In this document: positions 6,704-64,000 of the stretch, in pieces
How positions within the stretch are numbered: the first letter of the stretch is position 1
Layout: the number at the start of each line of letters is the position of its first letter
Origin: Nitrospirota bacterium
Lineage (GTDB): Bacteria; Nitrospirota; Nitrospiria; JACQBW01
NCBI GenBank assembly: GCA_016194305.1
Contig: JACQBW010000019.1
Location: 47,204 to 111,203, forward strand
Reading direction: 5' to 3'
Length of the DNA: 64,000 nucleotides
Translations under genes and position numbers: made by a program
The notes under the pieces: generated by a model
What the model was told of the DNA's origin: nothing
Databases searched by the model: none
The model's input: the letters and a program-made list of their open reading frames with translations, nothing else

Positions 6704-7884
6704 ATGGAGAGAGCCTCTTTTAGAGCAGGTGACTTTTCTGCGATGCGGTTAATCTCAATCCCTTCGCTGAGTCCATTGATGGCATCGAGAAAAGCCTTCG
6801 CCCCGTTGCGGGTACCGGAAGGGTGATGATGTATGCCTCCTCCCGCATTGACCACAACGTCTTTGCCAAAATCGATCATCATTTGCGGAATCATACCGGG
6901 ATGAATCCCCGCTGAAGGGACCGGAAAGGAACTTTTAAACATCGATTTTTCCGAGAGCCGTCCGGCGATTTCAAGCGCATCGTCTTTAGGCAACGAAACG
7001 TTTCCATAGGGCGATGGAAACAAGGCCAGGTCCGCACCCGACATTCTCATCAAACTCCCCAGCAGCAGCGGAGCGGAAATGCCATGCCGCGAAGAAGGGT
7101 AAAAGCATCCTGCCAGTGCGGGATGCGCTAACAAAATGACATTTATTTTTGAATGCTCTGCCAACTCCTGCATGACATTCCAGCCGTAGGCCAGCACGTT
7201 CACCAGCAGGGCGTTCGCTCCTTCGTCCACCAGGTGGCACGCTGTTTCTATTAATTTACTGGGCGGGGCTGACAAATTCACGGCGTAAAGGACCTGACGA
7301 TTTTCGTTCCGTGAGATATCATCGATGACCTTCCGGCAATGTTTCACTCTTTCAAGCCGGTCTTTCTCGTCAAAATTGATTTCGTCGTCTTTCACGATAT
7401 CGACACCACCGCTCACCTGCTCTCCAAAAGCCTCGGCATATTCTTCCGGAGAAAGATCAAATCCGCTTTTAAATATGCTCATCAGGAGGGGCCGGTGGAA
7501 CTGTCTTAAGTGTTTCCGGACTCCCTCGATTCCAAATTTCGGACCTGGAAATTCTTTGGCCATTTCACTGGGAAAAAAGAGATCGACCAGTTTGATCTCT
7601 CCGTCCATGGAAAGCTTTCCGAAAACGGCAACTAGAATCTCACTGAGTCGAACAGGGAAATTCGATATCGGAAATCCGATTCTTAATTGAACTTTTTCTT
7701 CCGAATTCAAAAATACATTTTCAGAACCGAGATAAACGCCGGCATATCGGGATTGCCGATCTTGCTGGGCGGACGAAATGCCGCTCCAGGAGCCAATGGT
7801 CATTCCCAGGGCTATTCCCCGTCCTCGTTTATCCGGATCCGGACACCGGGAAGCCGGAATCTGGTAAGTCGCGATGACTTTCAT
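6688..7884 (-). CDS. mtnW: RuBisCO-like protein (form IV), 2,3-diketo-5-methylthiopentyl-1-phosphate enolase type
   Basis: 398 aa. GGVDIVKDDE carbamyl-lysine motif of the RuBisCO large-subunit family. Short length and linkage to mtnX/mtnB indicate an RLP rather than a carboxylase. Confidence 0.85.
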   Translation of the reverse strand: MKVIATYQIPASRCPDPDKRGRGIALGMTIGSWSGISSAQQDRQSRYAGVYLGSENVFLNSEEKVQLRIGFPISNFPVRLSEILVAVFGKLSMDGEIKLVDLFFPSEMAKEFPGPKFGIEGVRKHLRQFHRPLLMSIFKSGFDLSPEEYAEAFGEQVSGGVDIVKDDEINFDEKDRLERVKHCRKVIDDISRNENRQVLYAVNLSAPPSKLIETACHLVDEGANALLVNVLAYGWNVMQELAEHSKINVILLAHPALAGCFYPSSRHGISAPLLLGSLMRMSGADLALFPSPYGNVSLPKDDALEIAGRLSEKSMFKSSFPVPSAGIHPGMIPQMMIDFGKDVVVNAGGGIHHHPSGTRNGAKAFLDAINGLSEGIEINRIAEKSPALKEALSIWKSC

Positions 7885-9347: not shown

Positions 9348-9788
9348 CTATCGGTCTCCGGTTATCTGGACCTTCCTGATAGTGGCATCGAGATTTCTGG
9401 CGTGAATATAGGCGATTGAACCGGGATGGGAAGCGACATATTCCTTGACGAGCTGTTCGTTTTTCAATTCTAAAGGGGGGACGCCGCGTCCGGTAAAAAT
9501 CTGTTGAACCCAATAATATTTTAAACTCGAAAGAGATTTGTTCAAATAAGTGATATCGAATTTTTCACGTAACGGATCCGCTTCATCGAGATCCACCGGA
9601 ATAATTCCCTTGCCGTCTTCCCATTCCTTTTTTTCACCGAGATAAATGGATTTGAGTTCCGCATCGAGAATCTTGTTTCGCCGATTTTCAGGCGAAACGA
9701 TGATGACGATCTCTTCGTCCCCCGTCGGCAATGCCGGACCAGGAAACATGGCTAACATAAACAGGAGATAAAGAACGGTTTTTTTCAT
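9348..9788 (-). CDS. small periplasmic substrate-binding-like (PstS/PBP-like, half-size) protein
   Basis: 146 aa with a signal peptide. The pattern ELKSIYLGEKKEW..G..I.PV...YW..QIFTGRG..P...HPGSIAY resembles PBP-like domains. Family assignment is tentative. Confidence 0.45.
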   Translation of the reverse strand: MKKTVLYLLFMLAMFPGPALPTGDEEIVIIVSPENRRNKILDAELKSIYLGEKKEWEDGKGIIPVDLDEADPLREKFDITYLNKSLSSLKYYWVQQIFTGRGVPPLELKNEQLVKEYVASHPGSIAYIHARNLDATIRKVQITGDR

Positions 9789-28067: not shown

Positions 28068-28140
28068 GAGCCGCTAGCTCAGTTGGTAGAGCACCGCCCT
28101 TTTAAGGCGGGTGTCGTTGGTTCGAATCCAACGCGGCTCA
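28068..28140 (+). tRNA. tRNA-Lys (anticodon UUU)
   Basis: Hand-folded cloverleaf. Acceptor GAGCCGC/GCGGCTC, D-arm GCTC/GAGC, anticodon stem CCGCC/GGCGG with loop CTTTTAA, T-arm GTTGG-TTCGAAT-CCAAC, discriminator A. No encoded CCA. Confidence 0.9.
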
Positions 28141-28149
28141 TATTATATT

Positions 28150-28195
28150 TGGGGGCCCGTGAGGATTCGCAAAGCGCAATCCTCCGATGCCCCCA
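28150..28195 (+). other. strong nested stem-loop directly after tRNA-Lys
   Basis: TGGGGGC (28150-56) pairs with GCCCCCA (28189-95). GAGGATT (28161-67) pairs with AATCCTC (28178-84). An inner CGC-AAA-GCG completes the fold. Confidence 0.5.
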
Positions 28196-28257
28196 AACCG
28201 CAGATTTTTGAGCGGCTAACAGTTACACAAGCAGATTGGTCAAAAAGGTCCAGCGAC

Positions 28258-28356
28258 AAGGCCCGAGAAACGAGGCAACGCAGGCGTACTTTTCGGTACG
28301 TTGAGGAAGCCGAGATTCGAGAAAGACGTCGATGGTCCCTTTTTCAGCAATCTGCC
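28258..28356 (+). repeat. structured intergenic element, copy A (inside the tRNA-Lys/tRNA-Glu spacer)
   Basis: AAGGCCCGAGAAACGAGGCAACGCAGG, then hairpin CGTAC (28285-89) : GTACG (28296-300), then TTGAGGAAGCCGAGATTCGAGAA...TTTTTCAGCAATCTGCC. Ends 5 nt before tRNA-Glu. Confidence 0.6.
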
Positions 28357-28361
28357 ACAGG

Positions 28362-28436
28362 GTCCCCATCGTCTAGCCCGGCCCAGGACATCGCCCTTTC
28401 ACGGCGGTAACACGAGTTCAAATCTCGTTGGGGACA
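28362..28436 (+). tRNA. tRNA-Glu (anticodon UUC)
   Basis: Hand-folded. Acceptor GTCCCCA/TGGGGAC, anticodon stem TCGCC/GGCGG with loop CTTTCAC, T-arm ACGAG-TTCAAAT-CTCGT, discriminator A. No encoded CCA. Confidence 0.9.
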
Positions 28437-32724: not shown

Positions 32725-33303
32725 TCAACCAATCAATTTCTTCTTTTCGAGAACCTGCTCCCAAAATAAACTCTCTGTCTCGAGCAGACGTATAATATAA
32801 TGATCGTTTCTGGCAATTTGAAGATGTATATCCGGCTTATCCGGAAGGTAACAGTAAAAATCGATGACGGGAAGATCAGTGACTGCCAGAATATGCTGTA
32901 ACTGACCGTAGTAATAGTCTGGCACTTTTCGATAAATTGAAGCCTTGCGGTAAACACTCTCGCCGCATTTAATTTCGACAACCGTATTTCCATTCCTGGC
33001 TAAACCATCGACACTTGCACGGAGCCATTCGTATTCAACACTTTGAAGGCAGGCGGGATCGACCTGAATGCCAACTTTGGCCTCGAACTGTTTTCTTGCC
33101 AAAGGTTCAAGCGCCGTCCCTCTTATCATCGCAGCATTCGGGCCTTCTCTTTTGCCTCCACATTTCTCGGACAGAAGTTCCTCGGGTGTCTTCCAGGGAT
33201 TTTCTCCCATAATCGTCGGAGCATCCGACGCTCCTATTCCTTGACATCGCCAGTCGAGCCATTCCCTCTCACCTTGTTGGAGAGCCACGATTGTATAGGT
33301 CAT
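32725..33303 (-). CDS. YqaJ-like (lambda-exonuclease-type, PD-(D/E)xK) nuclease domain protein
   Basis: 192 aa. GIGASDAPTIMG..PWKTP..L, G..LEP.AR, SVDGL and VEIKC motifs typical of the YqaJ viral recombinase family. No RecT/Erf partner nearby. Confidence 0.75.
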   Translation of the reverse strand: MTYTIVALQQGEREWLDWRCQGIGASDAPTIMGENPWKTPEELLSEKCGGKREGPNAAMIRGTALEPLARKQFEAKVGIQVDPACLQSVEYEWLRASVDGLARNGNTVVEIKCGESVYRKASIYRKVPDYYYGQLQHILAVTDLPVIDFYCYLPDKPDIHLQIARNDHYIIRLLETESLFWEQVLEKKKLIG

Positions 33304-33426
33304 ATGTACCTCGAGTGAGCATGCGCTGAACTTCTAATCCAGGTAACATACAATGTTTTTAACGTTAAGGCTACTCCGAAGTTGAAAATCTGATCCAATT
33401 ATGATTACATCATATAGGACAATCTT

Positions 33427-33942
33427 GTGACCGACTCAAAATTGAATATAACAGAACAGCACTGGCTTTTGAAATCAGAACCTTCCACATTCTCGATTGA
33501 GGATCTGGAAAAGTCCAGAAATGGTACGGCTTCGTGGGACGGCGTCCGGAATTACCAGGCGAGAAACTTTCTGCGGGACCAGATAAAAAAAGGCGACGGC
33601 GTTCTTTTTTATCATAGCAGTTCAGATTCCATCGGAATTGCGGGTGAAGCAGTCGTGGTACGGGAGGGATATCCAGATCCCTCTGCATTCAATCCGGCAG
33701 ATCCTCATTACGATCCCAAGAGCGTTTCGAAATCGCCCACCTGGTTCACAATCGAGATTATGTTGGTCCGAAAATGTCGCGAAATCATTTCTCTGAAACA
33801 GCTCCGTACGATTCCGTCTCTTCAAGAGATGAAATTGCTCCAGCGCGGAATGCGGCTTTCAGTACAACCCGTCACGGCCAGGGAATGGGAAGTCATCATG
33901 ACTCTTCCGCAGTGGGGTCCGGTCAGGAAGTCTAAAGGGTGA
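33427..33942 (+). CDS. EVE-domain (PUA-like) protein
   Basis: 171 aa with a GTG start. HWLLKSEPSTFSIEDL...WDGVRNYQARNFLRDQIKKGDGVLFYHS...RLSVQPV is the canonical EVE signature. Confidence 0.85.
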   Translation: MTDSKLNITEQHWLLKSEPSTFSIEDLEKSRNGTASWDGVRNYQARNFLRDQIKKGDGVLFYHSSSDSIGIAGEAVVVREGYPDPSAFNPADPHYDPKSVSKSPTWFTIEIMLVRKCREIISLKQLRTIPSLQEMKLLQRGMRLSVQPVTAREWEVIMTLPQWGPVRKSKG

Positions 33943-51212: not shown

Positions 51213-52213
51213 TTTTCGAACCTTTTAATAATCTTCCAATTTTCGCCGCTATCCGTCGATTTATAGAGACCGTTCTGTGTACCGGCAAATAAAATTTCCG
51301 GTCTGGATTGATTAAGTGCGATAGAACGAACGACTTTGGACTCAAGTCCCCTGTTTTTTTGCGACCAACTTCGCCCTCCATCGAAAGATTTATAGACTCC
51401 CAAATCCGTTCCGGCATAGACAGTCTTGCCATCTTTTTCATCCAGTTCGAGACCAATGACAAACCGGGAACCTATTCCTTCCGTCATTTTCGACCAGTGG
51501 TCGCCGCCGTCCTGACTCTTGAAAATTCCGGCAGTTGTCCCAATGAGAATCTCATTCGCGATTTTTGGATTCATCAGGATGCTATTCACACCCAGCGCCA
51601 TTGCGCTACCGACATCGCTCTTGATTAAACCTTCATTCTTCTTTTCCCAGCGTTCACCCAAGTCACTGCTCCTATAAATTCCACCGCTCGTTCCGACAAA
51701 AAGAATGTCCGGATTATGGGGATTGAACAGGAGAGAAACCGTATAAACAGACTCCATGCTTCCCACTTTTTCTATCCATTCTCCTCCTTCGTTCGGACTT
51801 TTAAATATTCCCACAGTCGTTGCCGTAAAAATAGTTTTAGGATCTTTGGGATAGAACGCAAAGCCGTTGACGACCGAAACATGCCCCTTGAGTCCAATAT
51901 TTGCCGGATACCATTGTTGACCTCCGTCCTGGGTCTTATAGATCGCATCTCCAAAAGTTCCCGCATAAACGGTTGAAGAAGATGCGGGATCAATACCGAG
52001 GGACAAGACGTGCGCATCTCCCAAACCCTGGCTCCGAAATTCCCAGGTTTCACCCCCATCTCTGCTTTTGTAAACTCCTTTCATCGTTGCAATGTACATG
52101 ATGTCCGGATTCGAAGGATTCATAGCAATAGTAAAAACAGTAGGCTCTTTGTGTTCGCATCCCGTGACCAAGAAAACCATGCATATCGCCAGGACCAGGA
52201 ATCGAGTTTTCAT
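51209..52213 (-). CDS. Ycf48/BNR-type seven-bladed beta-propeller lipoprotein
   Basis: The ORF-track start 52357 overlaps the upstream gene. ATG 52213 gives MKTRFLVLAICMVFLVTGC (lipobox). Seven Asp-boxes: SRDGGETW, TQDGGQQW, SPNEGGEW, SSDLGERW, SQDGGDHW, SFDGGRSW, STDSGENW. About 334 aa, like cyanobacterial Ycf48. Confidence 0.8.
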   Translation of the reverse strand: MKTRFLVLAICMVFLVTGCEHKEPTVFTIAMNPSNPDIMYIATMKGVYKSRDGGETWEFRSQGLGDAHVLSLGIDPASSSTVYAGTFGDAIYKTQDGGQQWYPANIGLKGHVSVVNGFAFYPKDPKTIFTATTVGIFKSPNEGGEWIEKVGSMESVYTVSLLFNPHNPDILFVGTSGGIYRSSDLGERWEKKNEGLIKSDVGSAMALGVNSILMNPKIANEILIGTTAGIFKSQDGGDHWSKMTEGIGSRFVIGLELDEKDGKTVYAGTDLGVYKSFDGGRSWSQKNRGLESKVVRSIALNQSRPEILFAGTQNGLYKSTDSGENWKIIKRFEK

Positions 52214-53271
52214 TATAGACCGATTCCCACCCACACACCTCGATCGCCCGTTCCCAAAAGGAGAGTTCCGGGATAAGGAGAAAAAAAGCTTCTTGCGTCC
52301 ACCGAGGCCCCTTTTCCGATAGCAGGGTGCCATAACGTACCGGAATTGTCGCTCCAAAACGCTCCTTTGTCAGTACCGATCATGATCACTTTCTTCCCGT
52401 TGAGAGTTTCAACATCCAGAGTCTGACAGTTCAATCCGGCAGGGATATCAGGCAATGTTTTCCAGAAGAGATCCTGTTTCTCAAATTTCCCTTCATAAAT
52501 AGATTTTCCGGTCCAGATATAAAGATTGTCGTTAAAGTAGGCACCTCGAATATCTCCCTGAAGTTCCGGAAAGCTGATCGGCACTGGATTGGATTCCCCT
52601 TTTTGAATATAGAAAATTTCCTGATCGGAAATTGCAAAGAGCCTGCCTTTGCCTCCAGCCACCCATTTGATCGCCCTGTCTATTGGAAGTATCATTTTTT
52701 CCCAATAGTTAGAGACCACATCTCTCCTAAAAAGTCCGTTATCTGTCCCGCTGTATAAAACATTTTCCGAATCCAGATAGAGCGCGTGAATGCCTTTCTG
52801 ACCGATACCTTCCTTCATCAGAACCCAGCTTTTTTTAGCCCGGTCTCCCTTATAGATCCCCTCCTCTGTTAAGATGAACAGGGTGTGGGTTGCGTCTTCA
52901 ACAATTGAACGAACATTCAAATCTGCCAAACCTTCATTCATTGGAAACCAGGAGAATCCGCCGTCCTTGCTTCTATAAACCCCTTCGCCGTCCGTTCCGG
53001 CATAAAAGCCCCTTTCCGGATCTCCGGTTAAAGAGGACACGATAGGAAAAGTTATCCCTTTATCCAATTGAGTCCAATGAGTCTCATTCATCGGTTTTCG
53101 ATAGACCGCACTGGCTGTTCCGATATAAAGCTGATCGAGTGCCAGCATCATGGATTGAACATTCTTATCGGGCAGATCACCATTCACCGATCTCCAGTTT
53201 TCCCCTTCATTCGAACTGACAAAAATCCCTTCTCCTGTTCCGGTAATTAACGATCCATCAGGGCTCATCAC
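52213..53271 (-). CDS. BNR/Asp-box beta-propeller protein (the true 5' end probably lies upstream; see findings)
   Basis: 352 aa from GTG 53271. Asp-boxes SSNEGENW, SKDGGFSW, SDNSGTLW. The same frame stays open to 53481 and encodes another blade (LYAGTFGGGIFRSTDGGRRW) with no start codon. The TAATG junction overlaps the next gene. Confidence 0.7.
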   Translation of the reverse strand: MMSPDGSLITGTGEGIFVSSNEGENWRSVNGDLPDKNVQSMMLALDQLYIGTASAVYRKPMNETHWTQLDKGITFPIVSSLTGDPERGFYAGTDGEGVYRSKDGGFSWFPMNEGLADLNVRSIVEDATHTLFILTEEGIYKGDRAKKSWVLMKEGIGQKGIHALYLDSENVLYSGTDNGLFRRDVVSNYWEKMILPIDRAIKWVAGGKGRLFAISDQEIFYIQKGESNPVPISFPELQGDIRGAYFNDNLYIWTGKSIYEGKFEKQDLFWKTLPDIPAGLNCQTLDVETLNGKKVIMIGTDKGAFWSDNSGTLWHPAIGKGASVDARSFFSPYPGTLLLGTGDRGVWVGIGL

Positions 53272-53294
53272 GAGCGAACGTATGGAGTTATTGG

Positions 53295-54044
53295 TTAAGC
53301 CGGAATTGACCGGTATCCATCTTCGACCCCCGTCGGTTGACCGAAAAATGCCTCCTCCAAAGGTTCCCGCATAGAGAAAGTTTTTTGGAGATTGGACAAA
53401 AGCCCTGATATAATTTTCATTTCGAAATAGGTCCCTGAATGGTCGATGAGAAAAGCCCTGACCAGAGTCGATTCCATTCCCTTATTCAGGCCTTCCCAGC
53501 TCAATCCCTGATCCCTGCTTTTAAAAACACCGCTACCGGTTCCGATAAAATATTCGCCGTGATATTCCGTAATGGTCGCAATTTCAAAATTAGTCAATCC
53601 CGAATTCGAGGGGAGCCAGGTTTTTCCCTTATCCACGCTTCTAAAAATTCCCCCTTTGATCGTTCCGGCCAGAAAGACTCCGTCTTTTGACCTGCTGAGA
53701 GAAAGAAGAAAGGGATCTCTTATTCCTTTGCTTAGAGGTTCCCAAAGATCATCTTCCGGATTCTTGCGGTAGACTCCGTCTCCAAATATTCCGGCATAAA
53801 CAACACGATCTTCATGAATCAGGGCTGAAACACTTCCTCCGGCGATGGGTCCATTGGTCTGGTAAAAAGTGATTTCTCCATTTTTCGGTTTTTGATAACC
53901 CGGTTGATGCGTGATGTATTGAAATTGTTCCAGATATTTTGCCTCTTCCCGTGAACATTCACGGGGAATCATGACCGCCGTGAGCATGAGACCAAACATT
54001 GCGAGCAGCACTGATCTTGCCGCGTTTTGCATTTTATTATTCAT
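53295..54044 (-). CDS. BNR/Asp-box beta-propeller protein, exported; 3' end appears frame-disrupted
   Basis: 249 aa with a signal-like N-terminus. Asp-boxes SVDKGKTW and SRDQGLSW. The last ~45 residues (YFEMKIISGLLSNLQKTF...) lose propeller character, while the alternative frame keeps it. Confidence 0.65.
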   Translation of the reverse strand: MNNKMQNAARSVLLAMFGLMLTAVMIPRECSREEAKYLEQFQYITHQPGYQKPKNGEITFYQTNGPIAGGSVSALIHEDRVVYAGIFGDGVYRKNPEDDLWEPLSKGIRDPFLLSLSRSKDGVFLAGTIKGGIFRSVDKGKTWLPSNSGLTNFEIATITEYHGEYFIGTGSGVFKSRDQGLSWEGLNKGMESTLVRAFLIDHSGTYFEMKIISGLLSNLQKTFSMREPLEEAFFGQPTGVEDGYRSIPA

Positions 54045-54777: not shown

Positions 54778-55239
54778 TTATGAGCAGTAATTTTTGATAA
54801 AGCGATCGGCATGTTCTTTTTTAGTGAGTTCAGCAAGTTTTCCGGATCGACTGGCAAAAAGATGAAAGAATTCGCAGGCTTTACGGGAATTGCCAATCTT
54901 TTCATAAGCCCAGGCGGTCATAAAGAGCGGCGTATAAAGAAGAGGCCTGCCGGTAATCTCATAGTCCGATCTGAGCTCTGAAGCCTGTCGAAACAGCACA
55001 ATCGCTTCCTCAAACTTGGCTTCCGACATATCGATCATGCCCTTTCGATTTAATTCATATGCTTTTTCTACGGAATCTTCGGCGAGTCCGGTTACGGGGA
55101 TCAGACAGACAATGACCCCGTAAAGAATTTGACTTAATAAAGCTGATGATTTGAAAATAAGAGCTCCTTGACGGAAACCTCTCCTCCATCCGAAAGGAAA
55201 ATTCTCCTTCTCCCCGGGAGATAGATTTCGTCGACGCAT
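54778..55239 (-). CDS. hypothetical exported protein with TPR-like helical repeat; start uncertain
   Basis: Signal-like ILYGVIVCLIPVTGLA, then an AYELNRKGM...FEEAIVLFRQA...AWAYEKIGN helical hairpin. The ORF-track ATG at 55239 overlaps the upstream gene by 106 nt, and no canonical internal start is seen. Confidence 0.4.
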   Translation of the reverse strand: MRRRNLSPGEKENFPFGWRRGFRQGALIFKSSALLSQILYGVIVCLIPVTGLAEDSVEKAYELNRKGMIDMSEAKFEEAIVLFRQASELRSDYEITGRPLLYTPLFMTAWAYEKIGNSRKACEFFHLFASRSGKLAELTKKEHADRFIKNYCS

Positions 55240-55805
55240 TTCGGGTCATCATTAAAACTTTCAACCTGTTTTAAATCCCCCTTTGGCGTAAAATAATAGA
55301 CCACATAGCGGGTATTCAGGTATTTTCCATCAGAAGTTTTGATCGAATCCTGGATATTAATCGTAAAACGAACAGGACCCATATTCCGATTAATCTGGAG
55401 GATCCGATTCTCTTTTATTCGGTATCGCGTGTTCAGACCATCTCCATGAATTCGGACGAGCTGCCCAAGTGGATGTAAATCGAACTCTCCTAAGCTCAAT
55501 GAATGCTTTCCGTCACCGGCATCAAAGAGACGGTAAGCCCTATGGACCGCCATCATTCCAATCTGTCCTTCTGCCCATTTTCCAGCCTCCATGTCACTCA
55601 GCAGGACTTTAACTTGATCAGGAAGCTGAACTTCGGCCCTCCCTTTATACGATTTTCCGTTTAGAATAACTTCAAGATCGGAGGAAAAACCTTTAAAACC
55701 TTTCTCCCAGCGATAGGTTGTTTCGTAAGCCCCTTTCAGGAGATTCCGAGCCTCGGGTTGATCGGGCGGAATAGCTCCTTCTTCTCCATTTCCGGCATTA
55801 TTCAT
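55134..55805 (-). CDS. hypothetical protein (~223 aa), divergent from the CbbQ-like gene
   Basis: Start moved to ATG 55805, preceded by AAGGGAGG. Soluble and beta-rich by composition. I half-recall a cyanobacterial DUF family but cannot support that. Confidence 0.5.
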   Translation of the reverse strand: MNNAGNGEEGAIPPDQPEARNLLKGAYETTYRWEKGFKGFSSDLEVILNGKSYKGRAEVQLPDQVKVLLSDMEAGKWAEGQIGMMAVHRAYRLFDAGDGKHSLSLGEFDLHPLGQLVRIHGDGLNTRYRIKENRILQINRNMGPVRFTINIQDSIKTSDGKYLNTRYVVYYFTPKGDLKQVESFNDDPKCVDEIYLPGRRRIFLSDGGEVSVKELLFSNHQLY

Positions 55806-55828: not shown

Positions 55829-55858
55829 TTGTCAGGCAAAAAGTTACTATGCTATATT
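55829..55858 (+). promoter_or_regulatory. candidate sigma70 promoter for the CbbQ/NorQ-like gene
   Basis: TTGTCA (55829-34), 18-nt spacer, TATATT (55853-58), about 32 nt upstream of the GTG at 55890. Confidence 0.4.
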
Positions 55859-55889: not shown

Positions 55890-56672
55890 GTGCCCATTTC
55901 CAGCGAACCCTATTATCTCCCTACCGGCGACGAAGCACTTCTCTTTAAGATCGCCTTTCATTCCAAGATTCCTGTCATCCTAAAGGGCCCTACCGGATGC
56001 GGAAAAAGCCGATTTGTCGAATTTATGGCCCATCAGCTCAAAGTCCCGCTGATTACAGTTTCCTGCCATGAAGATCTTACCGCTTCCGACCTGGTTGGGA
56101 GATATCTCCTGAAAGGGAGCGAAACCGTCTGGATGGACGGTCCTCTCACGACTGCAGTAAAAGAAGGAGGCCTCTGCTATCTTGATGAAATTGTCGAGGC
56201 CAGAAAAGATACAACCGTGGTGATACATCCTCTGTCGGACAGCAGACGTCTGCTTCCGATTGAAAAAAGAGGGAGCGTTCTCGAAGCCCACCCTCAATTT
56301 ATGCTTGTTCTTTCCTACAATCCCGGGTATCAAAGCGTTTTAAAAGAATTGAAACAGAGTACAAAGCAAAGATTTCTCGCTTTGGAATTTAACTATCCCC
56401 TGTTTGAACAGGAGGTAGAAATTATCAGGCACGAGGCTGAAATTAAGGATGAACTGGCCAAGAAACTGGTCAAAATAGGCCACAAGATCCGAAACCTTAA
56501 GAACCAAGGCCTTGATGAGGGCGTCAGTACCCGTCTTCTGATCTACGCCGGCACTCTGATTCGAAATGGTATTGAGCCTCTACTCGCCTGCAGAACCGCA
56601 TTAGGTCAACCGGTCACCGACGACCCTGAAATGCAAAAGAGTATCGCAGAAATTGTATCTGCCATACTATGA
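55890..56672 (+). CDS. CbbQ/NorQ/NirQ-family (MoxR-class) AAA+ ATPase
   Basis: 260 aa with a GTG start. [10 protein letters not shown].., Walker [17 protein letters not shown], Walker [17 protein letters not shown]. Size and motifs match CbbQ/NorQ. Confidence 0.85.
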
Positions 56673-56863
56673 AAGGGGCTCGCGTCGCCCCCTCCAACGG
56701 CATAGCCTTATGGAGCCTCCCCTTCTCGCTCGCTTTGCTCGCTGGATCTCCAATAGGGGCTCGCGTCGTTCCGGGTGCTCACCGTCTCGCACCCGCGCAC
56801 AGGATTATTGGCACTTCTTCGTGCCAACGTGCGCACTATCCAAAGGCAAAACCGGATTCGTAA
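56673..56863 (+). other. GC-rich structured insert between the CbbQ-like gene and the downstream genes
   Basis: The 14-nt direct repeat AGGGGCTCGCGTCG occurs at 56674-87 and 56755-68. Hairpins: GGTGC (56774-78) with GCACC (56789-93), and a nested pair, GCGCAC (56795-800) with GTGCGC (56829-34) enclosing GGCAC (56810-14) with GTGCC (56821-25). Visibly richer in G+C than the flanks. Confidence 0.5.
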
Positions 56864-57229
56864 ATGAGTAGGCCATACGATATTATTCTTATTGGTTGGA
56901 TTTTTCTGACGAATCTCCTTCTCGACAGTTACCTCATTTTTGCCAATCCGACTTATTCTCTAAAAATATTTGGAACACATTTCTCGGGATGGGCGGGATG
57001 GGCCTTTAAAATTCAATCACCCATTTTACATGGCCTGCTTGGCATTGGATTCATAAGAACCAAACGATGGTCCTATCTCCTTTATATGGCCTATGCCGCA
57101 TTTGGACTCGTCAATGCATTTGCCAATCTCTATTTTTTGGGTTACGGAAGAATCCGTATGATCTTTATCGTTTCACTCCTGGTCATCTCGGGCTATATCT
57201 ACTTTCGGAGAAAGGCATTTCATGCCTAG
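56864..57229 (+). CDS. small polytopic membrane protein (about 4 TM)
   Basis: 121 aa and hydrophobic throughout (IILIGWIFLTNLLL.., GWAGWAF.., YLLYMAYAAFGLVNAF.., MIFIVSLLVISGYIYF). Its stop overlaps the VWA-gene ATG by 8 nt. Confidence 0.6.
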   Translation: MSRPYDIILIGWIFLTNLLLDSYLIFANPTYSLKIFGTHFSGWAGWAFKIQSPILHGLLGIGFIRTKRWSYLLYMAYAAFGLVNAFANLYFLGYGRIRMIFIVSLLVISGYIYFRRKAFHA

Positions 57230-59975
57230 TGAAATGGATAATTTTTATCACGATTTGAATGGCATCTCTCCAAAAGCCGCACGTGCGTTCCAGACGATCG
57301 GAGAAGAACTCCACGGAGAACTTTCATCCGAAGTGTTTCAATCCTGGTTTCACCTGGGTTCCGTGATTTCCTACTCTTCCTCTGCCAACGGAATACGATA
57401 TTTTAACGAAAGCGGCCAACAGATCAGAAAAATGGCCTCACACGCCTCTTTGAACCTTCTCCTTCAAAAGGGAATTCAACTCGGATTTGCTCAAAACAGC
57501 ATGGCGCTGGACTATTTCCGCATGCTCTCCGAATTGATTCATATTTATCCGGCAGAGGTCATCTCCCATTGGGCTGATATCGGGAAAGAGATTGCCGAAA
57601 CAGACTATTTGACAGGATCGGAATATTTCAAATCTGGATCGGCCATTCTAAATGTGTTGGATCCGCCCCTGCTGAAACCCTGGGGCAGTATCGGTCTCCT
57701 GCTATCTCAGGAAGATCGCCTCAATAAATCATTCATGACCCTGGAATATTTCCGTACGACCCCGGAGTTCTTCAGACAGGTCAAGAAAGCTTCTTTTTAC
57801 CCGCAATGCCTATACATCGGACACGCGCTCGCCTTGCAAGTGCCAAAGGATACCTTGTCCTATTTTAAAACGCTCCCGCAAATATTTAAAAACCTCCCTC
57901 AGAACGAAGGTACGGAACTTATTTTTTCACTTGCCGCAGAACTTGCGTTTCAGACGCCGGTCGCTGTTGTTGATTTCCTCACTCATGCAACAGACGTATT
58001 GAAAATGATGAATGGAAGTCTCCATTCATTAAAAAGGTTTGTCGAAACGGGCAGTCAGATGCATGCACCTCCTGACGCAATTAAATCCTTTTTCTCTCTA
58101 AAGTCAAAAAAATCGATTGAGGCAATTCAAGAGTTGTCCCATGCCATTTTTCTGTCCGAAGTCAGGAAACGTCTTACTTACTTTGCGGAGATGATTACCG
58201 GGCATCCGGTTGAAATTCTGCCGGGTCCCATTCCTTCAAGTTATTTTAAAAATCAAACGGGAACGATTCTTTTGCCGGAAAAAATTAATCGCTATACGAA
58301 CAAGGAAGACAATTATAAACTTTATAAAATGATGCTTTTACATGAGTCGGCTCATATCGAATTTGGAAGTTATGCGCCTCTCTCCCTCCACGCTCTCGAG
58401 GAACTCGAAACCCTCTTCCCTGGAAACAGGGGCCTTTCTGTAGATCCGTGTCCGGTCTGGAATTATTTTCCGGATCCGGTGCTAGCCCAGAATCTATGGA
58501 CCATTGCGGAGGAATCACGGATCGATTTTCTCCTTCGATCCGAGTATCCCGGAGCTGTTAAAGATTTGAGTCCTATTTTACAATCTCAAAAGTCAGTCCG
58601 GCCTGACCTGTTTAATCTCCCGGAAGAAAAAGGGATTATGGAGGCTCTCTTCCAGCTTTCCGTCCACGAAAATATCGTGGTTCCACTCCCGATTGCCAAT
58701 CTTGTCTCCTCTGTTTTTGCGGACCTGAAAACGCTCTGGCGCCCTGGAAGTTCGAACGAGAATACACTCCATACCGTTTGCGTTATTTATCAAAAGATCC
58801 AAAACAAGATCAACATATCCCTTCCTGGAGTCAAGACCCCGGAACTTATTCCAGTTGAAGAGATGATTCCAAATTACGGTATCATTCCCGAGAGTGCCTT
58901 TTCACATCATGGTCTGATCACACCTGAACTTGCGTTTCAGACTGATTCCGCGCAGAACAATTTCATCCGTAATCTGAACATGACCGAAAAAGACAATCTC
59001 TCTTCCAAACAGGGGAATCCTCTTGTTCCAAATGTTCAAGCAAATAAAGATGAAGCAAATCTTCCCTTGAACTGGAAAGGGAATAAATCAGAAGGTTTCA
59101 GTTACGACGAATGGGACTGGATGATTCAGGATTACAAACCCGGCTGGTGCAGCGTCATCGAAAAAAGGGTAGATTCTTCACAAAAGGCGTCCGCAGTGAT
59201 GGAAAGCTCCCGAGGATCCCTCCTTTCGATTCGGAGGTATTTTGAAAAATTGAAACCTGAAAATATTCATAAAACAAGAAAAGAGTATGAGGGAGAAGAA
59301 CTTGATTTTGATCGAATTGTCGACCTGGTCGTCGATATCCGGACCGGAACGCCGCCCTCTGAGAATTTCTATATCAGAAGAGCCAAGAGAGTCCGGAACA
59401 TCTCGGTCGCCTTATTGGTTGATTTGAGCGGTTCGACCGGCCAGGCGATTCCTGGAAGTAAGAAAAGAGTCATCGACATAGAAAAAGAGAGTCTGCACCT
59501 GATGGCCGAAGCGTTAAAAACAATCGGAGACGACTACGGTATATTCGGGTTCTCCGGACAATCCCGCAATTCGGTTGAATTCTATATCATTAAGGATTTC
59601 AATATGAAGAATGATTCTTCGATGCGAATCAATTTGGAATCCCTTGAACCACTCGGACAGAACCGGGATGGCGCGGCCATCCGTCACCTGATTGAAAAAC
59701 TTTCTCATCGGGACGCCAGGACGAAGCTATTTATTACCATTAGCGATGGCAAGCCATTGGATGACGACTATTCCGACCTCTATGCGCTCGAAGACACAAA
59801 ACAGGCGTTAAAAGAAGCAAGGCAGAAAGGAATCCACCCTTTTTGTATCACGGTGGACAAGCAGGCCAACGATTATATTAAGAAGATGTACCAGGATGTA
59901 AACTTTACTTATATTTCTGATATCGAAACTTTACCCATTAAACTTCCCCTGATCTACAAAAAATTGACGACTTGA
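57222..59975 (+). CDS. NorD/CbbO-like protein with C-terminal von Willebrand factor A domain and an internal HExxH motif
   Basis: 917 aa. The C-terminal ~200 aa carry the MIDAS motif LLVDLSGST, then GQNRDGAAIRH, ITISDGKPLD, EARQKGIHPFCITVD and LPLIYKKL, as in NorD/CbbO. HESAH is at nt 58341-58355. The N-terminal ~650 aa are helical with no recognised domain. Confidence 0.8.
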   Translation: MPSEMDNFYHDLNGISPKAARAFQTIGEELHGELSSEVFQSWFHLGSVISYSSSANGIRYFNESGQQIRKMASHASLNLLLQKGIQLGFAQNSMALDYFRMLSELIHIYPAEVISHWADIGKEIAETDYLTGSEYFKSGSAILNVLDPPLLKPWGSIGLLLSQEDRLNKSFMTLEYFRTTPEFFRQVKKASFYPQCLYIGHALALQVPKDTLSYFKTLPQIFKNLPQNEGTELIFSLAAELAFQTPVAVVDFLTHATDVLKMMNGSLHSLKRFVETGSQMHAPPDAIKSFFSLKSKKSIEAIQELSHAIFLSEVRKRLTYFAEMITGHPVEILPGPIPSSYFKNQTGTILLPEKINRYTNKEDNYKLYKMMLLHESAHIEFGSYAPLSLHALEELETLFPGNRGLSVDPCPVWNYFPDPVLAQNLWTIAEESRIDFLLRSEYPGAVKDLSPILQSQKSVRPDLFNLPEEKGIMEALFQLSVHENIVVPLPIANLVSSVFADLKTLWRPGSSNENTLHTVCVIYQKIQNKINISLPGVKTPELIPVEEMIPNYGIIPESAFSHHGLITPELAFQTDSAQNNFIRNLNMTEKDNLSSKQGNPLVPNVQANKDEANLPLNWKGNKSEGFSYDEWDWMIQDYKPGWCSVIEKRVDSSQKASAVMESSRGSLLSIRRYFEKLKPENIHKTRKEYEGEELDFDRIVDLVVDIRTGTPPSENFYIRRAKRVRNISVALLVDLSGSTGQAIPGSKKRVIDIEKESLHLMAEALKTIGDDYGIFGFSGQSRNSVEFYIIKDFNMKNDSSMRINLESLEPLGQNRDGAAIRHLIEKLSHRDARTKLFITISDGKPLDDDYSDLYALEDTKQALKEARQKGIHPFCITVDKQANDYIKKMYQDVNFTYISDIETLPIKLPLIYKKLTT

Positions 59976-59986
59976 GACCTGAAGGG

Positions 59987-60379
59987 CTATTTCGAACAAA
60001 TTTTGAGTTGATTGAGTTTCTTTTCTAAATCATGAACGGTATAAGGCTTGACCATGACGCCTAGAAAACCATGCCTCTTGTAGTCCGCCATAATGGGGTC
60101 GTTAAAATAGCCGCTCGAAATGATCACCTTCACGCCAGGATCAATTCCCTTCAATTGTTTCAAAATCTCAATACCGTCAAGATCTCCCGGTAGGGTCAAA
60201 TCCGTGATAACAAAGTCAAAATTCAGATTGGATTCATGATGTTTCTTGAAGTGATGGATGGCTTCTTTTCCACCCTCTGCCGTGGTGACTTCAAATCCAA
60301 GGTATCTAAGCATCTCCCGGACGACTTCCAGGACGCTCACTTCGTCATCGACGACCAGAACTCTCTTTTTTCCTGACAT
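59987..60379 (-). CDS. single-domain response regulator
   Basis: Start moved to ATG 60379 (MSGKKRVLVVDDE). ITDLTLPG, ISSGY, VKPY. A close paralogue of the C-terminal receiver of the 28813..31926 kinase. Confidence 0.8.
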   Translation of the reverse strand: MSGKKRVLVVDDEVSVLEVVREMLRYLGFEVTTAEGGKEAIHHFKKHHESNLNFDFVITDLTLPGDLDGIEILKQLKGIDPGVKVIISSGYFNDPIMADYKRHGFLGVMVKPYTVHDLEKKLNQLKICSK

Positions 60380-60735
60380 CCAGCGATCCTTTATTTCTTC
60401 CGAATCAAAAGACAAATGGGAATCGTGTCGGCTCTTCCGTTTGCCCGGGAAAATCTCTTTCTGTTCCTGAATAGAAATTTTCCATAAATTCATTTTAGGA
60501 CCTATTCTGAAGATAGATAGAAAGGATCTAAATTATTGCGAGTATAAAAGAGCATAAAGTATGCCCTAAAGAGGGAAATAGAAAAATTGAAAACGACGAA
60601 CTAAAATACCAAGCAATATCAGATAGTTAAATATTACATTGGCTTTTGGAGGCGAGCAAAAACGAAATTAATTGGAATTTTCTATTCAGGATTATTATCT
60701 AAACAGATACAAAGATAAATCGTAAAGGATACAAA

Positions 60736-62673
60736 CTAGTCAATCTCAACATTTAATTGCGCCAAAAGACGGCTTCCTATTTCATCGCCGAGCGGGTATT
60801 CCCTATGAACGGCATGTAAAAGATTGAAGACAGAAATTCCGAGTTCCATTTTATCTTTCCAGAACCGGTAACCCAATTTAAAATTCACCTGAGTATATGC
60901 AGGAATATCGGTCAGAACCACCGGGCCGACTAGCTCCGTTGTAGGAAAATGAACCGCTGTCTGGTAATAAATTTCCGTTCGAGCCGTAAAATTCCTCAAA
61001 AATTTAATTTCCCCACCTGCATTGATCTTCTGAGTCGGTCCGGCCCGGACAGCTGAATTATAAGGATTCAGGACCGTATCAAGACCTTCCAGTGATTGAT
61101 GAAGCTCCTGGTAGGCATAATTACCAAAGAGTTTTAGTCTTCTATTCACCGACAATTGGCCGGATATTTCTCCGCCATAGATATCCACATTGATGAGATT
61201 GGTAATCGAGATACCCTGAACATCGATCAGATCCTTTAACTGATTATAATAAAGATTTATTTCGGTAGTCAGTTGTTCAAAAAGAAGCACGGAGTAACCG
61301 GCCTCATAGGACTCGATCCGTTCGGGATTGAGATTCGAGGTTGGAAGGGCTATAAATGTTTGATACATCTCAAGAGGCGTCGGAGTGCGATACGCTTCGC
61401 TGTGAGACAATCGAATCCGTTGATGCCAGGTTTCAAATCGGTAAATCAGCGACTCGCGGGGTGACACGAGACGGGGATGCATCGTGTCAAAATTGATATC
61501 GTCATATCTCGCACCCGCGATAAGGGTGAGTGCATCTAGCGGAGTCCACTCTCCCTGGAAATAGGCTGCAAATAACTCGATTTGATGTCTTCCGCCGATC
61601 AGGTCGCCTCTCACGTCGGTCAATCGGTAGTTCGCTCCCGTGACGAGCTCGAATTCCGGGAAAAGGAGGAACAGATGTTGACCCTCCACATGATAGAGAT
61701 CAAAGGCATAATTGAGAAGGGGATCCGGATAATATGGAAGCTGACTCAGTGAGCTTGGAAAAAGTACGGGATCCGTATCGAAGTAATAAAAGTCGGTTTT
61801 ATAATTGAACGTATTCCAGTACACCCGAAGATAAGATTCCTTCTCTTCGTAACCTCCTTGAAGATAAGCCTGGCGAATCCCGCTCGAACCGAGTCCATTA
61901 TCGAATAGCGGGCCATCATAACGGGGCGTATCTGATATGCCGGCGGAAAAACTGACTTTTTTCCCTGGTTCAAATTCATGGAGTGCCAGGAAATTGCCTC
62001 GATAAACCTCCTTCCCGATAGCGCCCGAGTCCCTCCACTTTTTGAATCTTTCATAGCCCCCCGAGATTTTATATTCAACAGATCCTGTTTCTCCCCCGAA
62101 GAGGAAATGACCATTGGGATAATCTTTCCCATCGCCAGTGAGAAAAATGTGGATCCCTTTCACATCAGCGGGACTCTTGGAAATAATATTCACGACACCA
62201 TCAAAGGCATTGGCACCCCAGACGGCAGAACCCGGGCCTCGAATAATTTCAATCCGTTCAATTTCATTTAGACCAATCGGGAAAGAGCTCCAAAAAACCA
62301 GATTTTCAAGCTCTTCATGCACAGTTCTCCCGTCGATGAGGACAAGGAGCTTGTTTGCAAGGAGTTGATTGTCACCTCTGATGCTCACAATATGTTCGGC
62401 CGATGTGGTCTCCATCACTTCCATGCCTGGAACGCCTCGCAACAGATCCGGAAGATTCGTGGCGCCGCTCGCCTGAATTTCCTCGGCAGAAATGACTGAA
62501 ATCGTGGATGGGGACTGGTAGACAGATTGGAGGTGTCTCGAGGGGGTAACCACCATCTGTTCCTCGGACATAACAGATAACGCGTCGGAATCATGCGAAG
62601 AAAGGTCTTCCGAAAAGGCGTCATTATGTAAAATCAGAAGGAGCGATACGAAAACGAATATCTCTTTTCTCAT
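60736..62673 (-). CDS. TonB-dependent outer-membrane receptor
   Basis: 645 aa with a signal peptide. TonB-box-like MVVTPSR, plug motifs (NLPDLLRGVPGMEV, IRG, IDGR, IEIIRGPGSAVWGANAF) and a long beta-barrel. Confidence 0.9.
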   Translation of the reverse strand: MRKEIFVFVSLLLILHNDAFSEDLSSHDSDALSVMSEEQMVVTPSRHLQSVYQSPSTISVISAEEIQASGATNLPDLLRGVPGMEVMETTSAEHIVSIRGDNQLLANKLLVLIDGRTVHEELENLVFWSSFPIGLNEIERIEIIRGPGSAVWGANAFDGVVNIISKSPADVKGIHIFLTGDGKDYPNGHFLFGGETGSVEYKISGGYERFKKWRDSGAIGKEVYRGNFLALHEFEPGKKVSFSAGISDTPRYDGPLFDNGLGSSGIRQAYLQGGYEEKESYLRVYWNTFNYKTDFYYFDTDPVLFPSSLSQLPYYPDPLLNYAFDLYHVEGQHLFLLFPEFELVTGANYRLTDVRGDLIGGRHQIELFAAYFQGEWTPLDALTLIAGARYDDINFDTMHPRLVSPRESLIYRFETWHQRIRLSHSEAYRTPTPLEMYQTFIALPTSNLNPERIESYEAGYSVLLFEQLTTEINLYYNQLKDLIDVQGISITNLINVDIYGGEISGQLSVNRRLKLFGNYAYQELHQSLEGLDTVLNPYNSAVRAGPTQKINAGGEIKFLRNFTARTEIYYQTAVHFPTTELVGPVVLTDIPAYTQVNFKLGYRFWKDKMELGISVFNLLHAVHREYPLGDEIGSRLLAQLNVEID

Positions 62674-62698
62674 CGATAGGCATTATACTGATTTGAAA

Positions 62699-64000
62699 TC
62701 ATATTTCAAGACCTGATAATGGCAAGGTAAAAGAAAATCGACTCCCTTTTCCCAACTCACTCGATACCCATAGCTCGCCTCCATGGATCGAAATCAGCTT
62801 CTTGGTTATATATAATCCAAATCCTGTTCCTTTTGTCCCGGCTAAAGCATTATTTTTACCCCGGTAAAAACGATCAAATATCCGCTCGGCATCTTCCGGA
62901 GAAATTCCAATCCCCCGGTCACTGATCGTCGTCGTCATAAATCCGGCGTTTGTTTGAAACGAAACGCTAATGATGCCGGATGCAGGAGAAAATTTAATTG
63001 CGTTATCCAGCAAATTGATCAAAATCTCTTCAAGTTTGTCCTTGTCCCCGCGTACCATGACATCCCCCGGAGTTTCCACCTTTATTTCAATATTTTTTTC
63101 CTTCATCGGAGACAATAAGCCCAGGATAACTTCATCTAACAAGGAGCGAAATGCAATCGAGACCGGCACCATTTCAATCTTTCCCGATTCAATTCTGGAA
63201 ATTTCCAGGAGATCGTCAATTAAACGGATAAGGCGATCCGCGTTCTTTTTCATTCTTTCCAGATAGTCCGATTGTTTCTCAGTTAAGGGTCCTGGTATTC
63301 TATCCTGCAAGTTGTCGATGTATCCTTTGATTGAAGTTAATGGTGTCTTGAGCTCATGGGAGACGTGAGAGACAAACTCGGATTTTAGGCGATCAACCTC
63401 TTTCATCCGTGAAATATCATGAAATACCGCAACTTGTCCGAACGGAATTCCCGATTCATCCTGTATCGGCGCAATGGTCGCTCTGATCATTCGTGAGCTC
63501 TCGCCATTTCTTCCCGGAATTTCGATATCGTGGCTAAAAACGTGGCTTTCATTCCTAAAGACATCCTTTAAGAATTCCCCGCTCTGACCTGCAAACATCC
63601 TTTCGGCAGCGGGATTAATGAGCACGATGTCCCGTCTTTCATCCACCACGACTACACCATCGGCTATTTCTCGTATTATCCCTTCGCTTTTCTTTTTTTC
63701 ATATAACACCTCCTGCAAAACAGACTCCACTTTATTCGTTCTCTGAATCACTTTCTCTTCAAGAGTTGCATTGGCTTCGGCCAACTGCGCGTTCAGCACT
63801 TGTAACTTCTCCGCATTCGACTTGAGCTCGCGATTCCGGGAAGCGATAGACCGGGTCATCTGATTAAAAATCTCAGTGAGTTCGCCCACTTCATCCTGAT
63901 TGACAACGGGTGCAATTTGAGAAAGATCTCCTTCAGACACCTTTCTGGTAAAATAAGCAAGCGTTTCAAGAGGCTTGAAATATCGGGACGACAGTCCATA
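62699..64000 (-). CDS. HAMP-PAS sensor histidine kinase, N-terminus beyond the window end
   Basis: The ORF-track M at 63940 is a GTG inside a HAMP domain ([13 protein letters not shown]). The frame stays open to nt 64000 ([21 protein letters not shown]...). H-box [10 protein letters not shown]-box [21 protein letters not shown]. Confidence 0.85.

Follow-up and report, generated by a model that had tools for sequence, protein, structure and literature searches.

Results

A motor-adaptor locus coupled to a membrane protein

The stretch of DNA analysed here (the window, 64,000 nucleotides of contig JACQBW010000019.1 from a Nitrospirota bacterium) carries a locus that encodes a MoxR AAA+ ATPase (the motor), a small integral membrane protein (TM121) and a 917-residue VWA protein (the adaptor), with a GC-rich spacer between the first two genes (Table 1). 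With moderate confidence, we interpret this locus as a remodelling chaperone of the NorQD/CbbQO type that acts on a client other than the nitric oxide reductase cNOR or form I/II RuBisCO. That the two larger proteins form a motor-adaptor pair of this type is highly probable, while a role in membrane-anchored metal insertion, drawn by analogy, is put forward tentatively. The locus probably serves a membrane-associated enzyme, since the adaptor is long, the locus has a small membrane protein of its own and no known client lies nearby. A first-pass annotation of the sequence had placed the ATPase, spacer, membrane-protein and VWA elements where we find them, and its identification of a CbbQ/NorQ-type ATPase with a NorD-like VWA partner was borne out by Pfam, PDB-sequence and NorD profile matches.

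The ATPase is assigned by its sequence to the CbbQ/NorQ subfamily of MoxR AAA+ ATPases. It matched the Pfam families AAA_5 (2e-32) and CbbQ_C (5.5e-32), the Walker A (GPTGCGKS) and Walker B (YLDE) motifs noted earlier can be read directly in it, and a phmmer search of PDB sequences aligned it at full length (residues 3-259) to solved CbbQ and NorQ proteins, namely CsoCbbQ (5c3c; E 1e-100, 58% identity), AfCbbQ2 (6l1q; E 8e-97, 57%), JtNorQ (9qhd; E 5e-95, 55%) and PdNorQ (9qh4; E 7e-95, 56%). CbbQ and NorQ are 52-56% identical to one another, similar to the 55-58% identity of the ATPase to each; because it is equidistant from both, we assign it to a separate, third branch within the subfamily, with a bit score marginally highest to CbbQ (339 vs 321 bits). 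Its helix-2 insert fits the NorQ-type motif GRxLLxxxxT, which in NorQ grips the NorD finger (PMC13036017). The likeness to CobS is distant (2e-7 over part of the length; TIGR01650 at 28 bits, cut-off 558). Only sub-threshold NCBIfam matches were obtained for the ATPase (GvpN at 76 bits, cut-off 267), and none for the other three proteins of the locus.

A long adaptor with a NorD-type C-terminal module

Profile comparison showed the C-terminal ~295 residues of the adaptor to be a NorD-type module with predicted finger, VWA domain with an intact MIDAS (a metal-ion-dependent adhesion site) and docking tail. Pfam placed VWA and CobT_C matches at residues 719-894, and a profile of 11 homologues aligned residues 623-915 to residues 351-643 of NorD (9qhd_G; hmmsearch, 2.8e-68), a stretch that takes in finger, VWA domain and tail as well as the YxEWD segment ahead of the VWA domain. 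The MIDAS residues D734, S736, S738, T739 and S841-D842-G843, together with the terminal LTT, were invariant in the 11 homologues. The AlphaFold2 model of the whole adaptor (predicted local distance difference test, pLDDT, 74 overall) consists of four parts, and its best structural neighbours in Foldseek were NorD VWA chains (E 2e-12, TM-score 0.70-0.74).

The first ~530 residues had no Pfam match at E<=1; for the solenoid (residues 1-305), no NorD counterpart was found either. The central domain, modelled alone, reached a pLDDT of 88 and a pTM of 0.84, and the model consists of a three-stranded sheet followed by a helix bearing H374-E-S-A-H378-I-E380; the motif HExxHxE...EExRxD was invariant in the 11 homologues, and no Pfam peptidase family matched the domain. 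It matched NorD residues 34-121 and 156-205 over short, weak segments (domain E about 1-2). A 28-sequence profile of the adaptor family found NorD best (9e-95) and reached CobT at 1.2e-6 through a motif around E430, LAxxLFxxxExARxE, which aligned to CobT from residue 97 onward (CobT_N). CobT_N has been described as an 'M48C' domain whose three-stranded sheet contacts CobN and whose helices bind the CobS small subdomain (bioRxiv 10.64898/2026.07.21.739949). Because of this motif match and this structural description, we take residues 306-530 to be the adaptor domain common to NorD-N and CobT-N, in which a complete zincin-type ligand set has here been kept or regained. A metal site at the motif is likely, and peptidase activity would be possible only in clades keeping E375. 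Variable N-terminal domains of MoxR-associated VWA proteins have been proposed to confer client specificity (PMC9976466).

The length of 917 residues, previously singled out as unusual, turned out to be ordinary, 900-1100 aa being the norm of a large, apparently Nitrospirota-centred adaptor family. An exhaustive hidden Markov model search with the N-terminal 620 residues returned 1,164 cluster representatives with a cut-off of E<=1e-3, of which 130 also passed E<=1e-30; most members fall in this length range and have a C-terminal MIDAS and a ...YRRLTT end. Among 109 long members, E430, R433, Y442, G444 and N364 were nearly invariant, and H374 and E380 were retained in 89 and 95, respectively. 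All named members that were looked up came from Nitrospira, Nitrospirales or Nitrospiria, under the labels 'VWA domain-containing' or 'NorD'; similarly, a word-indexed protein search gave 13 full-length homologues, all from Nitrospiria or Nitrospirae, and when GTDB species genomes were scanned with the N-terminal 620 residues, all 10 loci obtained belonged to Nitrospirota. The same adaptor sequence was found in the Nitrospirota metagenome-assembled genome GCA_016178565.1 and in the Logan assembly of SRR12113409. In two closed Nitrospira-type genomes (L021 10001-13606 and L022 10001-13502; L numbers denote the loci retrieved), the adaptor has 1026-1037 aa and stands alone, with no CbbQ-type gene within 10 kb. 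A gene for a 133-134-aa protein is conserved 3' of the adaptor gene in both; it was considered as a TM121 equivalent and rejected, its product being soluble and unrelated.

On plasmids, tblastn gave ~265 NorD-type matches confined to adaptor residues 626-901, and the Miltoncostaea oceani plasmid NZ_CP064358.1 (L071 7413-11123) was matched from residue 299 onward. There, a CbbQ/NorQ gene is followed by genes for a 362-aa 'hypothetical' protein and a 548-aa VWA protein, which together correspond to a split adaptor. This 46.6-kb actinomycetotal plasmid carries insertion sequence elements and no nor or cbb genes, and its host is the sole non-Nitrospirota relative seen with a central-domain match.

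TM121 is a conserved partner of the adaptor

The loci of relatives were compared by tblastn mapping and called-gene tables, which gave 18 distinct loci with flanks of up to 10 kb, often less; they comprise a clade A (adaptor 47-64% identical) and a clade B (adaptor 32-36% identical). This comparison indicates that TM121 is a genuine, conserved and translationally coupled partner of the adaptor. The TM121 family lay inside the ATPase-adaptor unit in 13 of the 18 loci, and never outside that operon in the 13 contexts read; loss of the membrane gene in relatives had been set beforehand as a counter-test, and the gene is kept in these 13 and missing from five. The stop codon (TAG, 57227-57229) overlaps the ATG of the adaptor gene (57222) by 8 nt, as first annotated, and the same overlap is kept in L003, L004, L005 and L020, that is, in both clades, while in L018 the coupling passes through a glycosyltransferase gene. 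The proposal that the small membrane protein is a linked partner was thus upheld by its strong conservation, its translational coupling and its position.

Hydropathy analysis of TM121 gave clear segments at about 7-27, 70-93 and 94-114 and a weaker one at about 46-66, so that three of the four transmembrane (TM) segments first proposed stand and the fourth is plausible, not proven. TM121 had no Pfam match. Its family is made up of 54 clusters with identities of at least 55%, each labelled 'hypothetical', none with a Pfam domain and all from Nitrospirota wherever a name is given; N17, D21, K49, S52, P53, H56, N88 and R98 are invariant and lie in or beside the membrane segments, and a cytoplasmic PYD motif is near-invariant. 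The 141-aa membrane protein of clade B is 60% identical to TM121 (E 2e-51); between the clades, the motor is 64% identical and the adaptor 35% overall (solenoid 25-27%, central domain 37-40%, linker 16-22%, VWA domain 45%). The small membrane protein thus equals the motor in its conservation.

Table 1. Coordinates of the locus, of the adaptor domains and of flanking features in the window
Feature	Position	Strand	Description
CbbQ/NorQ-subfamily MoxR AAA+ ATPase (motor)	55890..56672	+	260 aa, GTG start
GC-rich spacer	56673..56863	+	191 nt
Complete repeat core unit in spacer	56675..56725	+	GGGGC-N7-GCCCC hairpin followed by CUCC-(variable stem-loop)-GGAG and CCUCCCC
Second repeat unit in spacer, degenerate or truncated	56756..56786	+	model R1 16 bits, E 0.73; more hairpins to ~56835
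Integral membrane protein TM121	56864..57229	+	121 aa, 3-4 TM
VWA protein (adaptor)	57222..59975	+	917 aa
Adaptor alpha-solenoid, residues 1-305	57222..58136	+	AlphaFold2 pLDDT ~90; all-alpha
Adaptor alpha/beta central domain, residues 306-530	58137..58811	+	CobT/NorD N-terminal-domain-related; HESAHIEFG 58341-58367, EESRID
Adaptor linker, residues 531-641	58812..59144	+	disordered; pLDDT 22-45; poorly conserved
Adaptor NorD-type finger and VWA, residues 642-917	59145..59975	+	MIDAS DLSGST 59421-59438, SDG, tail IYKKLTT
DUF3386 gene, divergent	55134..55805	-	223 aa; Pfam 3.6e-46
TPR protein TPR153	54778..55239	-	153 aa; weak TPR matches; hydrophobic segment 27-45
Predicted sigma-70-like promoter	55829..55858	+	TTGTCA-18-TATATT, TG-extended, 10/12 positions; consensus match

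Absence of a known client and a proposed mechanism

Pfam scans of essentially all open reading frames (ORFs) of at least 150 aa detected in the window neither heme-copper oxidase nor form I/II RuBisCO, carboxysome or CobN genes, in agreement with the first-pass statement that nor, RuBisCO form I/II and carboxysome genes are absent from it. Furthermore, the fetched flanks of the 18 related loci, at most 10 kb long and often shorter, held no nor, RuBisCO_large or CobN-type client. Such orphan status is not new to the phylum: in the 9FT-COMBO-42-15 family norB is absent although 'norD and norQ ... are universally present' (PMC11033732), and Nitrospira metagenome-assembled genomes encode norD and norQ while norB and norC are absent (PMC13032477). 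The description of the locus as an orphan therefore stands as to the missing client nearby, but not as a novelty, the surveys having remarked on orphan norQ and norD in Nitrospirota and left them unexplained.

In the mechanism that we propose, one adaptor would be bound per ATPase hexamer, after the NorQD and CobSTN structures, with its finger entering the hexamer pore and its C-terminal tail docking on the motor. ATP-driven rotation of finger and VWA domain against the N-terminal domains would stretch the disordered linker, and this stretching would prise apart a client lodged between MIDAS and N-terminal domains. The client-specifying half would consist of the extra 300-residue alpha-solenoid and the CobT-N/NorD-N-like domain, in which HExxHxE...EExRxD is a predicted metal-binding site. 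Gene content suggests that metal would be delivered through this site and that TM121 may anchor the complex to the inner membrane on its cytoplasmic side, or offer it a docking site there. Thus placed, the complex would help to assemble an integral membrane protein, or one associated with the envelope, whose gene lies elsewhere; insertion of a metal cofactor is the most likely form of this help. Consistent with this proposal, clade B interleaves envelope genes in the operon, namely those for a 561-aa protein with a signal peptide and a PMT_2 glycosyltransferase.

Several observations weigh against this interpretation. A distant nor or cbb operon is possible in the source genome, the search having covered the window; no client was found, and membrane-associated metal insertion is argued by analogy and from the co-operonic genes. 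Across the 109 long family members, Q stands at residue 375 in 66 and E in only 26, and the second histidine, H378, is retained in only 62; because these two residues vary, HExxHxE is not universally required. The central-domain model had no significant Foldseek neighbour in the PDB, zinc peptidases appearing only at E>0.1 (best 0.15). The membrane gene is missing from five loci, namely L007 (identical to L009), L008, L011, L016 and L017, in which the ATPase and adaptor genes are adjacent, and it does not lie next to the adaptor gene in canonical Nitrospira (L021, L022); it must therefore be dispensable or encoded elsewhere in those genomes lacking it at the locus. Finally, two short-read assemblies of the same organism, made independently, are interrupted in or beside the spacer, one starting at window position ~56783 (L002) and the other 31 nt inside the TM121 gene (L001), as fits a repeat on which assemblies collapse or break, so that the exact number of units in the spacer may be a product of assembly.

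Neighbourhoods of related loci

In clade A, the genes for DUF971, ferrochelatase, two BNR/Ycf48-like propellers, an 86-aa protein, in some loci a glycine-rich membrane protein (TM155) and TPR153, and then DUF3386 are followed divergently by those for the ATPase, TM121 where present, and the adaptor. In clade B, a TPR153 homologue and a PurU-like gene lie upstream, followed by the genes for the ATPase, the signal-peptide protein and the 141-aa membrane protein, sometimes with one or two PMT_2-family glycosyltransferase genes between the latter and the adaptor gene. The spacing of ATPase and VWA genes thus ranges from adjacent in five relatives to as much as ~9 kb in others and to unlinked in canonical Nitrospira, and their separation, once listed as a distinguishing trait, is for this reason not diagnostic.

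The divergent 223-aa DUF3386 protein had been suggested to belong to the same unit. Within the 84-nt gap, a predicted promoter faces the ATPase gene 32 nt 5' of its start. The DUF3386-ATPase linkage holds in the window, L003, L005, L007, L008, L010 and L019, all clade A; clade B, in which the PurU-like gene takes the place of DUF3386, lacks the linkage. DUF3386 had no match among PDB sequences, and a literature search on it returned nothing. By tblastn, TPR153 has homologues upstream of the ATPase gene in clade A and clade B alike (L003, L010, L011-L015 and others). TM121, TM155 and TPR153 are jointly lost in the clade-A loci L007 (identical to L009) and L008, with the window, L003, L005, L010 and L019 as the contrasting loci, and this joint loss suggests that the three act as a unit.

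These neighbourhoods raise the alternative that the client or its pathway is encoded in the clade-A divergent operon from DUF3386 to DUF971 and that the pair aids delivery of a haem or iron cofactor to an envelope protein. The synteny of the whole block in the window and the six clade-A loci linked to DUF3386, the ferrochelatase match (4.6e-108), the TPR homologue that is found upstream in clade B too and the shared loss of TM121, TM155 and the TPR gene all speak for it. At 47-64% adaptor identity, however, the synteny may be inherited, not functional; DUF3386, the propellers and ferrochelatase are not found beside the pair in clade B or Nitrospira, and in the window a frameshift disrupts the large propeller gene. 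We therefore consider this alternative rather unlikely.

Further genes near these loci were recorded. The conserved clade-B protein of 549-564 aa (L004 7821-9506; L006 72-5331; L012; L018 8210-12002; L020 8241-9926) combines a signal peptide with Asp/Gly-rich DxDGD-like motifs and matched no Pfam family, and in some clade-B operons PMT_2/STT3-like glycosyltransferase genes are translationally coupled to the membrane-protein and adaptor genes. Directly 3' of the adaptor gene in the window (59987-64000, - strand) lie genes for a TonB-dependent receptor, ABC_sub_bind, a histidine kinase, a sigma-54 response regulator and a small receiver protein; in the clade-B loci L004 (886-7539) and L018 (1220-7886), such a module separates the ATPase gene from the remainder of the operon. 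The receptors are only 26% identical, and the module could be a regulatory or metal-uptake link, or coincidence. The gene for the ~640-aa BNR/Ycf48-like propeller in the window (52213-54044, - strand) is split, with ~31 residues missing and a frame change at ~53421-53424, and is intact in L003, L005, L007 and L019; either the gene has decayed to a pseudogene or its repetitive sequence collapsed during assembly. Two tRNA genes (28068-28436), followed within ~5 kb by a YqaJ-like recombinase gene and an EVE-domain gene (32725-33942), may mark a small integrated element. Toxin-antitoxin genes lie a few kb from the operon in L005 and L007.

The spacer is a copy of a dispersed repeat

The spacer has a GC content of 60%, against 43-48% for the window, and holds the most GC-rich 150-nt stretch of the latter. 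It had been listed as a structured insert distinguishing the system, a view that did not survive the comparison: the gap between ATPase and membrane genes measures 20 nt in L010, 23 nt in L019 and 81 nt in L003, in L005 it is an unrelated 210 nt, and loci without the membrane gene have no such gap. The spacer was shown to be a passenger, a lineage-specific insertion of a dispersed repeat and not a conserved element of the operon. The L005 spacer (9433-9642) is not this repeat but an element of its own, with inverted repeats at its ends (GAGGCTGTTCAAAAAG... / ...CTTTTTCAACAGCCTC), and the ATPase-TM121 intergenic site seems to attract small insertions.

A metagenome scan for the direct repeat of the spacer, GGGGCTCGCGTCG (twice, 55-80 nt apart), returned 48 loci (L023-L070), ~34 of which carry the same element; about a dozen were set aside as chance matches to GC-rich coding tandem repeats of 24-30-nt period. 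The repeat has a 50-nt core, consisting of GGGGCTCGCGTCGCCCCCTCC, a variable stem-loop and GGAGCCTCCCCCTC, in units of 72-90 nt that stand in tandem (2.7 copies at 99% identity in L034). It is mostly intergenic, occurs in both orientations and often at contig ends, and the contigs bearing it (39-63% GC) come from soil, peat and groundwater metagenomes. Among 35 distinct units analysed with RNAalifold, the first hairpin was invariant and the inner pairs of the second covaried, being changed on both sides in 13, 17 and 5 sequences. The covariance model R1 scored the complete unit of the spacer at 71 bits (E 1e-11), and this unit aligned over ~85 nt with units of L029, L043, L053 and L030. Beyond this and the degenerate unit, the model found no copy in the rest of the window or among 19 related loci (~283 kb in all), blastn found no further copy of the spacer in the window or in plasmids, Rfam 15 gave no match to the spacer at gathering score or E<=10 and none to seven other repeat loci at E<=1, and a literature search with the core sequence returned nothing. 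Candidates for its nature include a mobile element, an RNA motif and a protein-binding site.

A role of the spacer as a cis-regulatory RNA, for example in processing or attenuation between the ATPase and membrane genes, would fit the covariation of its hairpin motif, its folding better than shuffled sequences (z-score -1.95 on the + strand) and the presence of a 64-codon ORF that bridges the two genes. Nevertheless, we assign this role a low probability: the spacer is absent from the operon of every relative, the same units recur in both orientations in unrelated contigs, no terminator-like site was found within it, and the - strand folds better (z-score -3.2) than the mRNA strand. Given the lack of a terminator-like site, the ATPase, membrane and adaptor genes are probably still co-transcribed. 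The 64-codon ORF (56669-56863, + strand), whose ATG overlaps the ATPase stop (ATGA) and whose TAA abuts the TM121 ATG, is not conserved in relatives and may be a product of chance in GC-rich DNA; alternatively, it could carry ribosomes and keep translational coupling across the insertion. A TGGCAC in the spacer was considered as a sigma-54 element and ruled out, being a mis-spaced hairpin arm; a sigma-54 promoter search gave no excess over shuffles and no site near the operon.

Relation to known MoxR-VWA systems

The closest known system is that of NorQ and NorD, which in Paracoccus denitrificans and Jhaorihella thermophila insert FeB into cNOR (PDB 9qh4-9qhg). The locus shares with it a motor that is 55-56% identical and has a NorQ-like helix-2 insert, and an adaptor with finger, VWA/MIDAS, C-terminal docking tail (E 3e-68), disordered linker and an N-terminal domain that may be weakly related; the client of NorQD is itself a membrane protein. 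In contrast, the adaptor here is ~280 residues longer and has an extra alpha-solenoid, HExxHxE was not seen in the aligned part of the NorD N-terminal domain, norCB is missing from the vicinity, the membrane partner is of a different family and the ATPase forms a separate branch. An ordinary NorQD pair whose cNOR (norCB) is encoded elsewhere in the genome would account for the strong match of finger, VWA domain and tail, for the helix-2 insert and for the public annotation of relatives as 'NorD', and the evidence from the source genome is that of the window. However, the N-terminal 530 residues, thought to specify the client, are not NorD-like beyond a weak motif, norB and norC are absent from the fetched flanks of the 18 relatives, the surveys give norQ and norD without norB in Nitrospirota (PMC11033732, PMC13032477), and nothing ties TM121, which lacks any Pfam match, to NorE or NorF. 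This explanation is accordingly unlikely.

CbbQ/CbbO (PDB 5c3c and 6l1q for CbbQ) resembles the locus in a motor 57-58% identical over its full length and in the one VWA adaptor expected per hexamer, and differs in that the locus lacks a RuBisCO form I/II or carboxysome context and is coupled to a membrane protein. We regard an activase of the CbbQO type, for a RuBisCO elsewhere or for the form IV RuBisCO-like protein of the window, as very unlikely. The marginally better score of the ATPase to CbbQ and the presence of a RuBisCO_large-family protein would favour it; yet the latter, a 398-aa protein (6688-7884) and the sole such match, lies ~48 kb away as first annotated, beside class II aldolase and HAD hydrolase genes in a methionine-salvage-type cluster, none of the relatives has a RuBisCO_large gene near the pair, and the membrane-protein coupling and interleaved envelope genes misfit a soluble client.

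The cobaltochelatase CobS/CobT/CobN (PDB 9uka and related) shares the motor-adaptor-effector logic. The 'M48C' domain of CobT and the central domain have an ExARxE-containing motif in common (E 1.2e-6) and both place helices after a three-stranded sheet, and Pfam CobT_C matches the VWA domain here; unlike that system, the ATPase is only distantly CobS-like (2e-7), no CobN-like effector lies nearby and HExxH is intact here. RavA/ViaA of E. coli pairs a MoxR ATPase with a VWA partner at the inner membrane and acts on respiratory complexes (PMC9489729, PMC10585395); it belongs to another MoxR subfamily with other domain architectures, and ViaA is without a dedicated small membrane partner gene. 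A conflict or defence module is hardly credible: ternary systems of MoxR, VWA and propeller proteins are known (Pfam bpMoxR) and the locus has propeller genes in its vicinity, but PADLOC gave only generic AAA matches for the ATPase and nothing for the five other proteins, the ATPase falls in the CbbQ/NorQ subfamily, and the neighbourhoods are mostly housekeeping with stable order and no phage or mobile gene noted beside the window operon.

Discussion

To our knowledge, the clients of MoxR-VWA systems are few, namely RuBisCO, cNOR, the cobalt and magnesium chelatases, CO dehydrogenase and the disputed targets of RavA/ViaA. The class of system described here is already established, and orphan norQ and norD in Nitrospirota have been noticed before; the architecture of the adaptor, the dedicated membrane-protein family and the uncatalogued structured repeat family of the spacer appear undescribed in the sources searched. 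The last of these is common in soil, peat and groundwater metagenomes, where it tends to break assemblies. Handles for finding the client are offered by TM121 and by two parts of the adaptor, its solenoid and its HExxH site.

Nitrospirota include environmentally important nitrifiers, and some surveys read norQ and norD without a nitric oxide reductase in this phylum as a hint of cryptic NO metabolism. Since the adaptors form a family of their own, with a distinct client-binding half and often a membrane partner, we argue against the use of these genes as denitrification markers. A bolder proposal, which we hold to be doubtful but not negligible, is that long adaptor, motor and membrane protein constitute an undescribed MoxR-VWA system that would load metal into, or proteolytically process, a Nitrospirota-specific membrane respiratory or envelope complex. 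If true, such a Nitrospirota-specific maturation system would explain the orphan norQ and norD genes across the phylum, including those of nitrite-oxidising and comammox Nitrospira.

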